Assembly: GCF_051252315.1 (NCBI RefSeq)
Contig: NZ_JBPOFP010000004.1
Coordinates: forward strand, 16,712-80,711
Origin: Paraglaciecola sp.
Lineage (GTDB): Bacteria; Pseudomonadota; Gammaproteobacteria; Enterobacterales; Alteromonadaceae
Direction: 5' to 3'
DNA length: 64,000 nucleotides
Shown here: positions 1 to 4,774 of the stretch, one piece after another
Position numbering within the stretch: position 1 is the first letter of the stretch
Layout of the letters: the number at the start of each line of letters is the position of its first letter
Made by a program: the position numbers and the translations under genes
The notes under the pieces: generated by a model
Databases searched by the model: none
What the model was told of the DNA's origin: nothing
What the model saw: the letters and a program-made list of their open reading frames with translations, nothing else

Positions 1-460
1 CAACACGAGCTGCCCCAACTGGGCCATTAAAAGGCATACCAGAAACAGCAAGAGCGGCAGACGTACCGATAAGTGAAATAATGTCAGTTGGGATTTCTGG
101 GTTAGCAGAAACAACAGTCACAATAATTTGTACTTCGTTCATGAACCCATCTGGGAACAATGGACGAATTGGACGGTCAATCAAACGAGACGTTAATGTT
201 TCGTACTCAGAAGGACGGCCTTCACGTTTGAAAAAACCACCAGGTATTTTACCAGCAGCGTATGTACGCTCTTGATAGTTAACCGTTAATGGGAAGAAGT
301 CTTGACCAGGCTTAGTGTCTTTTTTACCAACAACAGAAACTAATACAGTTGTATCGTCCATGCTTGCTAAGACTGCAGCAGTTGCTTGACGAGCAATTAC
401 GCCGGTTTCAAGAGTAACAGTATGCTGACCATACTGAAAAGATTTAGTAATAGGAGTCAT
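1..460 (-). CDS. pnp: Polynucleotide phosphorylase, N-terminal part (runs off left edge)
   Basis: Manual translation from ATG at 460: [30 protein letters not shown]...[31 protein letters not shown]...[13 protein letters not shown], the PNPase signature region. SD AAGGA upstream. Not in the supplied ORF track. Confidence 0.97.
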
Positions 461-536
461 TTTTATCCTTTAAATTTATAATATCGAACAGCCCATATGG
501 AGCCGCTCATTTTGCTTTTTCTATATCGCTTTCAAA

Positions 537-552
537 TGCGGCGCATAGTATA
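537..552 (-). promoter_or_regulatory. Candidate sigma70 -10 element (TATACT) with GC-rich discriminator for pnp
   Basis: Minus strand reads TATACT-ATGCGCCGCA about 90 nt upstream of the pnp ATG. No clear -35 at 17-bp spacing. Confidence 0.5.
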
Positions 553-627
553 GCTGCTCATATCAAGTAAAAACAGCTATTTGAAAATATTCTAGTGACT
601 TTAACTCAGTTTTTGGTATTTACTTGA

Positions 628-869
628 TAATTAACCCGAAGTCTGGATAAGAAGCGTCGTTCCACTTTAAATTTTTAAATAAAATTCAAGGGCTTATCTA
701 TAAAAATACTTTTAGATATTAGTAGTAGATTATTCGATGACGAAATTTTTGTTCCTAACAAGGCGGTTTTTCGTACGTAATAGCGAGCTATTGCTAGGAA
801 AACCAACATAGTTAGGGGCAAAAAGAGCGTTATCGAGAGGCCCAGCTTATCCAGAGTTAGGGTTAATTA
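628..869. mobile_element. MITE-like non-autonomous element, 242 bp, with 24-bp terminal inverted repeats and an internal long hairpin
   Basis: Left end 628-651 TAATTAACCCGAAGTCTGGATAAG; reverse complement of right end 846-869 TAATTAACCCTAACTCTGGATAAG (22/24 identical). Both ends finish in TA. No ORF. Internal imperfect palindrome 734-836 centred on AATAGC-GA-GCTATT. Confidence 0.72.
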
Positions 870-963
870 CATCCTGTAACGTTTTAACTCAAGCTGTAAC
901 AGAATTATGTGACTAACTCGTTAAACTGCCTGCGATAATTTTATTAAGACGTTGAGATTACCG

Positions 964-1674
964 ATGACATACAAAACTTTTAGCCTTTTAGCCTTAACAA
1001 CCACCAGCTTATTTTCGTGTAACAATGATGAATTTACCCGCGACATTAGCCAACCTATTGAAATTGACTTTGCTCAATCAGATCGAGGCTTTACGCCACT
1101 ATTTTCTGACTACCCTCAAGGTGAAGAAGCATTTTATCAATTAGATGCAAGCCATCAAACACTACCTGAACCATTTGCAGAAAAAATGGGTTGGAAATTG
1201 ACAGGTAATAATCACTCTGATGATTTGTTAATGACAATATCTGCACCTATCGATTTATTACAAAGCAATACTATGTATACCGTTTCTTTGGCATTAGAAT
1301 TTTTAACTGACGTGCCCCAAAATTGTTTTGGAATCGGTGGTGCACCCGGTGAATCGGTTTACGTAAAACTAGGGGTGAGTGACACACAACCTTCGAATAC
1401 TCTAGACAATGACATGTATAGGATCACAACCGATTTGGGAAACCAATCTCAATCAGGTACCCAAGGTCAAACTGTTGGTGATATCAATAACGGTATTGAC
1501 TGTGAGGCAGAAAATGCTTTTTCTTACACAGCGAAAACAGTTCAAACTAGCCAAGCTATTAACGTTATGTCCGATGACAATGGGGTAATTTGGGTCATCG
1601 CCGGAACTGACTCTGGGTTTGAGGGTTACACCTCTATTTACCTTACAAAGTTGAATGTAACAATTAGCAAATGA
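964..1674 (+). CDS. Hypothetical lipoprotein
   Basis: 240-aa ORF; ATG at 964 gives MTYKTFSLLALTTTSLFS-C lipobox; soluble beta-rich mature part. Confidence 0.8.
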   Translation: MTYKTFSLLALTTTSLFSCNNDEFTRDISQPIEIDFAQSDRGFTPLFSDYPQGEEAFYQLDASHQTLPEPFAEKMGWKLTGNNHSDDLLMTISAPIDLLQSNTMYTVSLALEFLTDVPQNCFGIGGAPGESVYVKLGVSDTQPSNTLDNDMYRITTDLGNQSQSGTQGQTVGDINNGIDCEAENAFSYTAKTVQTSQAINVMSDDNGVIWVIAGTDSGFEGYTSIYLTKLNVTISK

Positions 1675-1683
1675 TCTTAATGG

Positions 1684-1716
1684 TACAGGTAAGAAAAGGA
1701 TATACACTTACCTGTA
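1684..1716 (+). terminator. Hairpin / probable terminator after the lipoprotein gene
   Basis: TACAGGTAAG ... CTTACCTGTA, 10-bp perfect stem; weak U-tract. Confidence 0.45.
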
Positions 1717-1873
1717 TCTGCTGACGTAAGCGTTCCCAGTAGTTAACCTACATGACCACAGCACTTGAATATCACTTAATTTTAATAACCTCCAGATTCC
1801 TAGAGAAACAAAAAAGTCTGTGTTAAATTAAATACTTAAGACTTATTGCATGGTTGATGAAAGGGAATAAATA

Positions 1874-4774
1874 GTGGCGTCAAAGGACTCAAAAATTGAT
1901 GAGCTACAACGAGAACTGGCACTCACTCGGGTCGAGTTTTCAAGTCGTTTGCATAAATTGGAGCAAAAAATTGTTTCACTTAAAAACGATGCAGATTCAA
2001 CTCATCATGAGCACGTAGAATTAAGCGAAGAATCACAAACTACGCAGCCGTCGGCTAATTATTCGCAGCAGGAGCTAAAACCAGAAGTTCAATTAGCAAC
2101 TTTTATACAAACCGACAAACAAGAAAAAGCTAAACCAGAATCCAAACCTTCTTTTGCAAGGACGCTTTTAAAAGAGTTCAGCCAACACCTGATAAACCTT
2201 TCTTCCCCCCTCACAAAATTTATTTCTCCTGCAGTTAGCCTATATCAGCATTATCAAGCTAAAGGGCAAGGCCCAATATTTGTGTTTATGCTAATCGGCA
2301 TTACCCTTTTAGTCGCTGGTTTTGGTTATTTGGCACAGCTGCTGGTAGGAGAATTAGGCGCTGGAAGCAAATCGTTATTATTATTTATTATTGCTATTGG
2401 TGTCACATATGGCGGTGTACTTTTAGCCAATAGAGTCAAATATGCTGAAATATCTTCAGCCATTATTAGCTTGGGGTTATTACTCAATTTTGTAACGGTT
2501 TATATGGCTGGCAGCTATTATCAATTATTACCCGATTGGGCAGTATTATCGGGTTATTTAATCATAGCAGCAGCCTGTTTTTGGTTGTCGAATAAGTTTA
2601 ATGCAAAAGTATTAAGTGTTATCGCCGTAATAGGTGGGGCTGCAGTTCCACTTATATCTCAATTAGACCCATCCGGCACAAGCCTCTATTTACTAGGTTT
2701 AGGTTTTATCATTATGGCCAGCTTGTACCAAGCCAATGATAAAAACTGGCCTTGGCTGGGTATTATTAGCGTCTTTGTCACCTATAGCTGTTTAGAATTT
2801 TTATTACTTTCAATGTCAGTGAATCAACTTATTGCCTATTTTTCTCAAGGGTATTACTGCCTATTTTTGTTTTACTTATGTCGCTTTCTTAACTCTACCC
2901 ATCAAATTTCAAAAAGCATCATCACTTTATCGGTGATGATCTTATTTGCCAGTATTGGGGTATTTTACCAAAGTGAAGTAACAATCACTTGGTTAGTGCC
3001 GCTTTTTGCTTTTGTGAATGGGGCATTAAGTAGTTACTTAGTTTTCAAGACCAAAAAGCAAGATGGTTTATCTCTTAGTTCACACGCTTGTAGTTTACAC
3101 TCCTTGTTTGCGAGCACTTGGTTATTAGTCGCGATTGTAAGCAGCCTAGCCCCCGATTACTGGGGATTTGCCATTGGTGTTGAAGGCTTATTTATTTTGT
3201 ATTTTGCCCTAAAACAAAACTACCTATCTGTGCGAATTGAAGCTTATGCCTTGTTAGCTTTTGCGATTTTACATGCCGTTTTTGCAGTATTCCCCTATTT
3301 CCCTGACCCCGCCTTATCAAGCCTAAAAGGCAATCTAGTGGTAGCCAGTATTGGCGCCATAATATTTGCAGCTAGAAAACTCTTTAGCCACTATGCAGAT
3401 GTCATTAATTGGCAGTGGAAATGGGAGCAGCAACTTCATCGCGCTCTCAGGCCTGTAGAGTCAGTTTGGTTAGGTTTGTTTATCTTAACGCTACTTTGGG
3501 TTCAATTAGGTGTGTGGATGGCAATAGCGGTCTTACCATTACAAATTTGGTTATTAACCAAAACCTACAGAGCACAATGTAAAACCTCAGAAATAGTGAC
3601 TTATTTGGCAAGTGCCGTTGCCGTCGGAATTTGTATTTTAGGGATCAATGAAGTGCAGTCACTCTCTTTTAGAGACCTACCTAATTACGCCAAAGCTGCT
3701 TTGATTTTTGTGTTTGCAGAGTCTTGGTTATTTGCTGAGTATTATCGTCGAACTAATCAAACAGGACATTTAGCAAAACTAGCCGAAGCACTCAGGTTAA
3801 CCTTTTACCTAGTTTTACCTCTAACCTTTTTGCCTTCTGCAATTAAACACTACAACGAATTTTCGGCCATCGCTTTTTGGGCTTCTGCGTCAATAGCTTA
3901 CCTGTTAGGCCGTGCAATCAAACATGCATTTATCAGAACCGAGTCACTCATAATATTTGCCATTGCCGCTGTTTATAATCTTGCGTTCACCATAGATAAT
4001 TATCACCACCAAGCTTTAATTTGTTCCATTGCGAACCTGATCGGGTTAGGAATATTCAGCTATTTCTTGATTAACACCCATAAACAACATGCGCCGCTTT
4101 TAAACAAAAAAATAGCCTCTATAGGTTTATATTATCTGGCTGGTTGTATAGCTATCTACATGCAGGAATGGACAAGTTTTGTTTGGGCCGGTATTTTGAC
4201 CAGTGTTTATATATTTGCAATGGTCTTAAGTGCGCAGCATAACAAAATATTGTTCAGAAACCGCCGCATATTAGGATACTTAAGTATATGTAGTATTCTA
4301 CTTTCCTGGCTGTTGATGGCTATTACTGGCAGCGCACATATTATTAGCAGTAGCATTTGGTTATCCTTAAGCATGGTAATACCTCTAACCTTCTTGCTTA
4401 AGACTCACAGCTTAAACCTACTTGATTTATGGTTAATTAACCACAACAAAACCGGCTATACACTGCTACATGTATTGTTATCTGCCAGCGGCATGCTTTT
4501 ACTCAACGAGTGGAAATTAACTTTGTTAATAACACCTTGGCTAATACTGCATGGTAGTTACTTATTCTTTACTCATAAAAACAGTAAATTCATTGCAAAA
4601 CTAGCATTAACTTTCATGGCATTGGGTTTAGCCAAGTTAGGCTTAATCGATGCAGCAAACGCCATATTATGGCAAAAGGTAGCCCTGATGATTGGGATTG
4701 GATTGTTTATGTTAGCCGCTGCTTTTATGTATCAAAAACGTATCAACCAAACTGATAAAAGCGTAAAAATTTAA
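1874..4774 (+). CDS. Large polytopic membrane protein (DUF2339-like)
   Basis: 966 aa; N-terminal coiled-coil and polar linker followed by more than 20 hydrophobic segments, the layout of DUF2339 predicted membrane proteins. Confidence 0.7.
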   Translation: MASKDSKIDELQRELALTRVEFSSRLHKLEQKIVSLKNDADSTHHEHVELSEESQTTQPSANYSQQELKPEVQLATFIQTDKQEKAKPESKPSFARTLLKEFSQHLINLSSPLTKFISPAVSLYQHYQAKGQGPIFVFMLIGITLLVAGFGYLAQLLVGELGAGSKSLLLFIIAIGVTYGGVLLANRVKYAEISSAIISLGLLLNFVTVYMAGSYYQLLPDWAVLSGYLIIAAACFWLSNKFNAKVLSVIAVIGGAAVPLISQLDPSGTSLYLLGLGFIIMASLYQANDKNWPWLGIISVFVTYSCLEFLLLSMSVNQLIAYFSQGYYCLFLFYLCRFLNSTHQISKSIITLSVMILFASIGVFYQSEVTITWLVPLFAFVNGALSSYLVFKTKKQDGLSLSSHACSLHSLFASTWLLVAIVSSLAPDYWGFAIGVEGLFILYFALKQNYLSVRIEAYALLAFAILHAVFAVFPYFPDPALSSLKGNLVVASIGAIIFAARKLFSHYADVINWQWKWEQQLHRALRPVESVWLGLFILTLLWVQLGVWMAIAVLPLQIWLLTKTYRAQCKTSEIVTYLASAVAVGICILGINEVQSLSFRDLPNYAKAALIFVFAESWLFAEYYRRTNQTGHLAKLAEALRLTFYLVLPLTFLPSAIKHYNEFSAIAFWASASIAYLLGRAIKHAFIRTESLIIFAIAAVYNLAFTIDNYHHQALICSIANLIGLGIFSYFLINTHKQHAPLLNKKIASIGLYYLAGCIAIYMQEWTSFVWAGILTSVYIFAMVLSAQHNKILFRNRRILGYLSICSILLSWLLMAITGSAHIISSSIWLSLSMVIPLTFLLKTHSLNLLDLWLINHNKTGYTLLHVLLSASGMLLLNEWKLTLLITPWLILHGSYLFFTHKNSKFIAKLALTFMALGLAKLGLIDAANAILWQKVALMIGIGLFMLAAAFMYQKRINQTDKSVKI

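Follow-up and report, generated by a model that had tools for sequence, protein, structure and literature searches.

A probable IS982-family miniature inverted-repeat transposable element with a structured hairpin module upstream of pnp in Paraglaciecola sp.

Organization of the locus and anatomy of the element

The DNA analysed here, referred to as the window, is a stretch of 64,000 nucleotides from Paraglaciecola sp. (assembly GCF_051252315.1, contig NZ_JBPOFP010000004.1, positions 16,712 to 80,711), and the subject of this report is a 242-nt repeat at window positions 628–869. The repeat lies between the 5′ part of pnp, encoding polynucleotide phosphorylase (2–460, minus strand), and a strain-specific lipoprotein-like gene (952–1674, plus strand). 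The pnp start codon is 168 bp from the repeat, in agreement with the roughly 170 bp given in a first-pass annotation made from the sequence of the window, and the lipoprotein-like gene begins 82 bp downstream of the hairpin end of the repeat, on the same strand. The stretch 628–869 is very probably one copy of a non-autonomous MITE (a transposable element of the miniature inverted-repeat type) of the IS982 family, consisting of a 230-bp element and the flanking 6-bp TAATTA produced by its insertion.

An inverted-repeat search reproduced both of the nested structures described in the first-pass annotation. The outer arms, at 628–651 and 846–869, are 24 nt long and 92% complementary (22/24), and the arms of the inner palindrome (734–836), at 734–775 and 795–836, are 42 nt long and 71% complementary. 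The terminal TA bases form part of a 6-bp direct repeat, TAATTA, at 628–633 and, directly after the element, at 864–869; this is the target-site duplication (TSD). The true inverted repeat is 634–651/846–863 and the element proper 634–863 (230 bp), starting with AC and ending with GT. The left terminal inverted repeat (TIR) at 634–651 on the plus strand, ACCCGAAGTCTGGATAAG, has the AC start of the IS982 family and matches the left inverted repeat (IRL) of IS982-family insertion sequences (ISs) from congeners. The right TIR, at 846–863 on the minus strand (reverse complement ACCCTAACTCTGGATAAG), resembles a right inverted repeat (IRR), the family bases that follow it (..TAAGCC or ..TAAGCT) being closer to the IRR of the ISs than to the IRL. 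Between the TIRs lie a variable AT-rich spacer (652–729, plus strand), which defines subfamilies, is 74–81% identical within them and is about 35 bp shorter in other genera, and a conserved hairpin module of about 111 nt with covarying stems (730–841, plus strand; 122 bits and E = 4.4e-31 with covariance model R1).

Both strands of the 242 nt were predicted to fold far more stably than shuffled sequences, with −86 kcal/mol for the plus strand against −46.7 ± 4.5 kcal/mol for dinucleotide shuffles (z −8.8) and −68.4 kcal/mol for the minus strand (z −7.1). The absence of an open reading frame (ORF) reported at first pass holds in substance: the single frame in the window copy (675–821, minus strand, 48 aa) is not kept among copies, and comparison of sister copies revealed no conserved small ORF, copies of one subfamily being open in different frames. 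An Rfam 15 scan of window 400–1100 returned zero matches up to E = 10.

The repeat family in the source genome

The source assembly comprises 5.0 Mb in 254 contigs, of which the smallest is 2,009 bp, small repeat contigs having been filtered out. The element gave 45 BLAST matches in this genome, and BLAST together with a copy-derived profile resolved 24 full-length copies of about 241 bp on 22 contigs in addition to about 25 fragments. Identity to the window copy ranged from 65 to 93%, the closest copy being that on contig C75 (93%). The element proper of the family starts with ACC(C/T)GA and ends with TC(G/A)GGT, with TIRs of about 18–24 nt. Perfect direct repeats of 6–7 bp, of 11 different sequences, flank 20 of the 24 copies. 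They have the form TAnnTA, in which nn differs among copies but, within any one copy, recurs unchanged and in direct orientation at the other end (for example TAACTA...TAACTA, TAGATA...TAGATA and TATGTA...TATGTA; two copies have the 7-bp TAAATTA).

Several features of a MITE were found, namely small size, TIRs, no kept reading frame, TSDs of fixed length and varied sequence, and dispersed copies whose presence differs between species. The proposal of a multi-copy, non-coding TIR family is borne out by the 24 full copies and by copy numbers of 0 to about 100 among congeners; the repeat is neither single-copy nor present at this position in all relatives, the closest of which (G004 and G005) lack it at pnp. 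Of the element type suggested at first pass, the MITE part stands, and the TA-bounded, IS630-like part is contradicted by the 6–7-bp direct repeats: the target is not a single TA, and the duplication is TAnnTA with nn in direct orientation.

Orthologous intergenic regions without the element were identified in two congener genomes, G004 for the copy on contig C46 and G005 for that on C69, and at the C69 site homology to G005 breaks exactly at the TSD. In a further congener, G020, a copy of the MITE also occurs upstream of pnp, but neither its position nor its flanks are those of the window copy and its TSD is TATCTA/TATTTA; it is therefore an independent insertion.

Eight mini-derivatives of 14–38 bp with perfect TSDs were also detected in the source genome, against none in a reversed-sequence control; one example is TATTTA-ACCTGAACTCGGGT-TATTTA. 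In these derivatives, for example at C19:32039, C96:2859, C14:38038 and C145:2822, the two TIR tips are fused and still enclosed by perfect TAnnTA duplications. Over its outer 14 nt the TIR is itself almost palindromic (ACCYGARYTCRGGT). The mini-derivatives are collapse or excision products of full elements and could have arisen either as excision footprints or as slippage deletions. Longer, cargo-bearing versions were found neither in 47 loci of other genomes nor among the G005 matches listed. A 623-bp TIR pair is present at G005:4566495–4567117 and is possibly a nested or composite element.

Relationship to IS982-family insertion sequences

The IS982 family was tested as a source of transposase on account of its defining AC ends and variable direct repeats, which are 6 bp for ISVsa6 (PMC7335449). 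In P. aquimarina, a 988-bp IS982-family IS with a frameshifted transposase gene was found, with ends ACCCGAACTCGGTTTAA... and ACCCCAGATCGGCTTAAG... and TAATTA on both sides. A search of 40 congeners with its transposase recovered intact copies of 298–320 aa in several species. G013 carries a 1001-bp IS (IRL ACCTGAACTCGGTTTAAGAAATTG, TSD TAACTA) and G053 a 1014-bp IS (end ACCTCAGTTCTGGATAAGAAATAT, TSD TAAATA), with further copies flanked by TACTTA, TAATAA and TACATT. The ISs of the congeners measure about 988–1014 bp, and their flanking duplications are TAACTA, TAAATA, TACTTA, TAATAA, TAATTA and TACATT. The congener transposases scored 284 and 261 bits against the NCBIfam model transpos_IS982 (NF033520; cut-off 130) and also matched PF13612.

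The ends of the MITE and of these ISs are near-identical (ACCTGAACTCGG..TAAGAA). The MITE ends ACCTGAACTCGGGATAAGAAGAGT and ACCTGAGT(A/T)CTGGATAAGAAGTAT match the IS ends at 18 or more of 20 positions; in one comparison, the MITE reads ACCTGAACTCGGGATAAGAA and the G013 IS ACCTGAACTCGGTTTAAGAA, and in a second comparison the MITE reads ACCTGAGTTCTGGATAAG and the G053 IS ACCTCAGTTCTGGATAAG. The left end of the MITE resembles the IRL (..TAAGAA) and its right end the IRR (..TAAGCC), and the 6-bp TAnnTA duplication type is common to MITE and IS copies. The IS with matching TIRs whose search had been recommended at first pass was found in congeners, and the shared termini and duplications indicate that the parent family of the MITE is IS982 and not IS630. 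The MITE is not a deletion derivative of the IS: its interior is unrelated, and the hairpin module is absent from intact ISs. Searched against 32 IS982 loci, the covariance model found no match save the MITE adjoining the IS remnant of G005. This full MITE lies about 70 bp past the end of the remnant, which is the sole IS982 remnant of that genome (L084:1501–2137; G005 731625–732261).

Within the source genome, examination of TIR pairs 0.3–20 kb apart, contig ends, long self-repeats and IS-internal motifs revealed no parent IS, and no contig end in the source assembly carries the IS termini. The only trace of an autonomous partner in the assembly, detected by low-stringency tblastn, is a relic at C38:6898–7282 that has an IRL-like end (ACTCAACTCGTGATAAGAA) and the first 99 transposase codons (48% identity), interrupted by stops; no intact IS982 was found. 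Repeats shared with other contig ends are present at 110 contig ends and include tRNA/rRNA promoter regions and an IS terminus, TGTGTCCGTCCGGTAAACACC. Across an order-wide sample, the MITE occurred in 17 of 26 transposase-bearing genomes and in 37 of 275 genomes without the transposase (Fisher p 2e-8), an association that phylogeny confounds.

Several observations weigh against the interpretation of 628–869 as an IS982-mobilized insertion. The pnp copy is located in a strain-specific segment of about 1.1 kb, so there is no clean pre-insertion allele, and the empty sites found for other copies all come from other species, with flanks that are 72–90% identical and not base-perfect. Contigs below 2 kb are absent from the assembly, so that a collapsed 1-kb IS may have been lost. 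MITE and IS copy numbers are uncorrelated in the genus: in G002, 21 IS matches stand beside a single MITE match, and in G005 about 100 MITEs are accompanied by no more than an IS remnant.

Distribution across genomes

An exact 21-nt core pattern, searched in 185,579 species genomes, was found only in P. aquimarina, P. mesophila, one Paraglaciecola metagenome-assembled genome and two Neptunicella genomes. Among the full copies of P. aquimarina, P. mesophila and Neptunicella, 26 of 35 had perfect TSDs. With the covariance model, full-length matches were obtained in 54 of 301 sampled genomes of the order, representing 13 of 93 genera and 7 GTDB families, with several matches per genome and E values of 1e-9 to 1e-20. 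All of the 29 matches inspected proved to be elements of 204–240 bp built alike: they are flanked by a TAnnTA TSD, their TIRs read ACC(T/C)(G/C)A..., a short AT-rich spacer precedes the hairpin, and the right TIR comes after it. The family was at first taken to be lineage-specific, which does not agree with the presence of the same element type in these 13 genera, Neptunicella and Shewanella included.

The complete genome G005 contained 206 TIR matches, against one with a control pattern, and 72 hairpin-motif matches. A full, unannotated copy is present on plasmid pSbal01 of Shewanella baltica OS155; in the plasmid collection as a whole, the window copy gave one Shewanella match and a copy from another genus gave zero. 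P. aquimarina has a recurrent multi-copy subfamily of about 115 bp, in which profile positions 1–41 are joined to 166–241 (L032, L059, L062, L064 and L073). These short elements have no hairpin 5′ arm and bear on whether the hairpin is needed for transposition.

Conservation and strand specificity of the hairpin module

The covariance model R1 was built from 56 copies, and its match in the window (L001:1603–1714) corresponds to positions 730–841. This right half of the element is far better conserved than the left spacer. Within subfamilies of the source genome, identity was 93–94% in the hairpin and 91–93% in the TIRs against 74–81% in the spacer, and private substitutions were 2–3 times rarer in the hairpin and TIRs than in the spacer.

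Across genera, stem sequences have mostly been replaced while pairing has been kept. Standard pairs occupied 94% of cells, compared with 75% in shuffles and 35–54% in slid structures, double changes were seen at 23 of 31 pairs and the covariation score was 0.58 against 0.22; the alignment was fitted to the model, which weighs against these values by inflating the pair counts somewhat. An independent alignment with MAFFT and RNAalifold, using Paraglaciecola and Neptunicella copies alone, gave double changes at 11 of 31 pairs. The conserved unpaired or apical motifs are CAAGGC, AACGC and AATAGC-nGG-GCTATT.

Among 59 full copies, the plus strand had the stabler fold in 57, with a mean advantage of 12.6 kcal/mol; for copies from other genera the count was 28 of 29. 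In the stems, the ratio of G·U to A·C was 260:35, and a second analysis gave 64:3 and 108:4 for two groups; G·U reached at least 10% in 10–12 pair columns and A·C in none. Compensatory changes keep the fold in 13 or more genera, and G·U pairs occur where A·C pairs are nearly absent; what is constrained is therefore one of the two strands, in the form of single-stranded nucleic acid. An internal sigma-70 promoter showed no preference for strand or position, with hits on the plus strand in 67 elements and on the minus strand in 62.

Insertion sites and orientation

Gene contexts were derived from crude ORF calls around 56 classifiable copies. Of these, 27 lie between convergent genes (p 2e-4 against an expectation of 25%). 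The divergent context, to which the window copy belongs, is the rarest and is depleted (6/56, p 0.013). In tandem contexts, 10 copies are in sense and 13 in antisense orientation. Many TSDs coincide with a stop codon (distances −7, −3 or 0). The family prefers gene 3′ ends and has no orientation preference. At C48:10209–10448, for instance, a MITE has inserted into a TAACTA in which two convergent stop codons overlapped (TAA on one strand, TAG on the other), and the TSD provides both genes with a stop codon of their own, illustrating how a TAnnTA target favours gene ends.

With respect to replication, the 72 copies of G005 are divided equally (36 plus, 36 minus) and evenly along the chromosome. 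A replication-strand bias, as expected for a function in lagging-strand single-stranded DNA, was considered on the basis of a weak trend in Neptunicella (17/23) and rejected: the boundaries were set post hoc, no such bias was seen in G005 and the trend is probably due to chance.

Mobilization and possible roles of the hairpin

In the proposed mechanism, an IS982-family DDE transposase supplied in trans would bind both TIRs and insert the element at AT-rich TAnnTA sequences. The frequent overlap of these with stop codons would account for the enrichment of the element between convergent genes. As only the truncated, stop-containing IS982 relic remains in the source genome, its copies, including that of the window, are probably now stranded and immobile.

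An element of another type is very improbable as an explanation of the repeat, whether a TA-duplicating MITE of an IS630/Tc1-mariner-type transposase, a REP/RAYT-type repeat or an integron attC-type hairpin repeat. The TA at both ends, the long hairpin in intergenic DNA and the AAC...GTT ends, which are like attC core sites, would suit such elements. The nn between the TAs is, however, copy-specific and direct at both ends (AC..AC, GA..GA, TG..TG), giving a 6-bp duplication rather than TA, and this direct-repeat TAnnTA pattern rules out the IS630 or TA-duplicating type. TIRs and TSDs are both lacking in REP elements. Complementarity of the ends does not extend past GTTA, unlike that of the R″/R′ boxes of attC, the copies are dispersed and not arrayed, and the matching autonomous element is IS982. 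A regulatory insertion, in which the repeat provides a promoter, a protein-binding site or a DNA-bending site for pnp or the divergent lipoprotein gene, is improbable as well, even though the repeat occupies a divergent promoter region, at distances of 168 bp to pnp and 82 bp to ORF 952, and has its hairpin end towards the latter. IS982-family ISs do carry outward promoters or form hybrid ones (PMC9330008), and the invariant palindrome AATAGC-N3-GCTATT could be a protein-binding site. Against this, no sigma-70-like promoter or terminator-like site was found in 400–1000, where a mean of 2.6 promoter-like sites would be expected by chance; the conserved block upstream of pnp stops about 35 bp before the element; and the depletion of divergent contexts points to insertions of this kind being mostly harmful and not recruited. 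No evidence of an influence on pnp was found, with the element beyond the conserved block (to about 594) and no promoter- or terminator-like motif, and the effect of the insertion on pnp is most likely little or none.

For the hairpin itself, it is unlikely, though less so than regulation of pnp, that the MITE merely spreads a structured RNA used by the host, which would be a small RNA or would act in cis on the stability, processing or RNase III/E targeting of an mRNA. At the window locus its influence would fall on the 5′ region of the lipoprotein transcript or on an antisense or upstream pnp transcript. Covarying stems, conserved unpaired motifs and the excess of G·U over A·C are a classic RNA signature, the fold is kept in genomes without the transposase, private substitutions are 2–3 times rarer in the hairpin than in the spacer and the elements are enriched by gene 3′ ends (27/56 between convergent genes, p 2e-4). 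The Correia and ERIC repeats, moreover, act at the RNA level, through RNase III or RNase E, when co-transcribed (PMC10969869). A host-used RNA is nonetheless difficult to reconcile with the lack of orientation bias (10 sense, 13 antisense), by which read-through would yield the well-folding strand only half the time, or with the lack of a consistent internal promoter (67 plus, 62 minus, and the window copy without one). Selection on a host-level RNA does not explain why the TIRs match the hairpin in conservation; no Rfam family was matched; and copy numbers of 0 to about 100 among congeners make an essential role implausible.

We tentatively favour, at somewhat less than even likelihood, a role of the hairpin in the propagation of the element itself, in cis on the plus strand. 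The hairpin would be active either in a single strand formed transiently in an intermediate of the copy-out type or in a transcript borne by the element; IS982 is among the families with outward promoters, a feature linked to circular intermediates (PMC9330008). As the TIRs matter only for transposition and the hairpin is equally conserved, the hairpin is suggested to be likewise filtered at element propagation, and since orientation is random with respect to both genes and replication, the agent acting on it should be intrinsic to the element. This role in cis is opposed by the transposition of the parent IS without a hairpin and by the absence of an internal promoter consistent across copies. 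The probability remaining after the cis role and the host RNA falls to a hairpin without present function.

A more far-reaching proposal is that the hairpin is a novel structured module of single-stranded nucleic acid, whether as non-coding RNA or as a DNA signal specific to one strand (for instance a site of priming or of processing that a copy-out intermediate uses), carried by IS982-type MITEs across at least 7 GTDB families of marine Gammaproteobacteria, with Paraglaciecola, Neptunicella and Shewanella among the genera, and perhaps driving their success. The loops CAAGGC and AACGC and the motif AATAGC-nGG-GCTATT would in that case be recognition sites for a dedicated partner. We regard this proposal as possible but doubtful.

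Comparison with known elements

The closest relatives by their ends are IS982-family ISs, such as ISVsa6 of Aliivibrio and ISSod20/ISSde7 of Shewanella (PMC7335449), which share with the MITE the AC termini, TIRs of about 17–24 nt near-identical to those of the congener copies and 6-bp AT-rich duplications. The MITE differs in having no transposase gene, a length of 230 bp rather than about 1 kb, an unrelated interior and a hairpin, and would be a passenger on the IS982 machinery. The 2020 review of the IS982 family mentions no MITEs (PMC7335449). A similar element has been described as MITECca01 in the Cardinium endosymbiont of Oedothorax gibbosus (PMC9769881); it is about 240 bp long, lacks a transposase, is present in high copy number and has inverted repeats resembling those of a resident IS982-family IS. 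Compared by description and not by sequence, MITECca01 differs in its Bacteroidota host and in being IS-derived, with IS sequence kept beside the left repeat, while in the Paraglaciecola-type family the likeness to the IS is limited to the TIRs, a conserved structured module is present and the range extends over many genera. IS982-derived MITEs are therefore already known, and novelty may lie in the cargo hairpin, with its covariation and strand specificity.

The Correia (NEMIS/CREE) repeats of Neisseria and the ERIC/IRU repeats of enterobacteria resemble the MITE in being small, TIR-bounded intergenic repeats with long hairpins that are frequent at gene ends. Correia elements duplicate TA and contain IHF and promoter sites. 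No sequence relationship to Correia or ERIC was seen, and the MITE described here differs in its 6-bp TSD, its identified parent IS and its lack of a promoter motif. SonMITE families were named in Shewanella oneidensis MR-1 (Romine et al. 2008, as summarized in PMC10969869). Shewanella also carries the present family (S. baltica pSbal01), and one of the SonMITEs may belong to it, in which case its novelty would be smaller still. No paper on MITEs of Paraglaciecola or Glaciecola was found in the literature.

For genome annotation, the analysis provides a name and a model for an unannotated repeat that occupies dozens to about 100 intergenic sites in some marine Gammaproteobacteria, often at stop codons. 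The IS982 family, which has been little studied, gains a MITE that is widespread in Gammaproteobacteria, and the target of the clade concerned is fixed as TAnnTA with a 6-bp duplication. If the hairpin aids transposition, it would provide a rare instance of a MITE with an accessory structure acting in cis; if it acts as RNA, it would be a new family spread by transposition. For pnp, the finding is probably without consequence.

Surroundings of the element at pnp

The 5′ part of pnp is 82–90% identical at the DNA level in all congeners. It is preceded on the minus strand by a genus-conserved upstream block (461–594), outside which the element lies. DNA homology upstream of pnp ends at window 477–594 in all congeners; in G004 and G005, the closest congeners, which are about 90% identical, it stops at 581 and 594 respectively, the latter about 35 bp before the element. 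In G005, the DNA upstream of pnp continues from there directly into the orthologue of ORF 1874–4774, without the MITE and without ORF 952–1674.

On the other side of the element, window 870–1873 forms part of the segment of about 1.1 kb between pnp and the large membrane-protein gene at 1874–4774. The segment is missing from G005 and, like ORF 952–1674 within it, gave zero DNA matches in 30 congeners. The ORF encodes the 240-aa lipoprotein-like protein, which belongs to no Pfam family. The MITE sits at the pnp-side edge of the segment, and the two may have been gained jointly or side by side. Upstream of pnp (window 461–951) there is no rpsO-like ORF, and pnp faces a divergent gene. The upstream block 461–594 being common to all congeners, this uncoupling of pnp from rpsO appears to be genus-wide.

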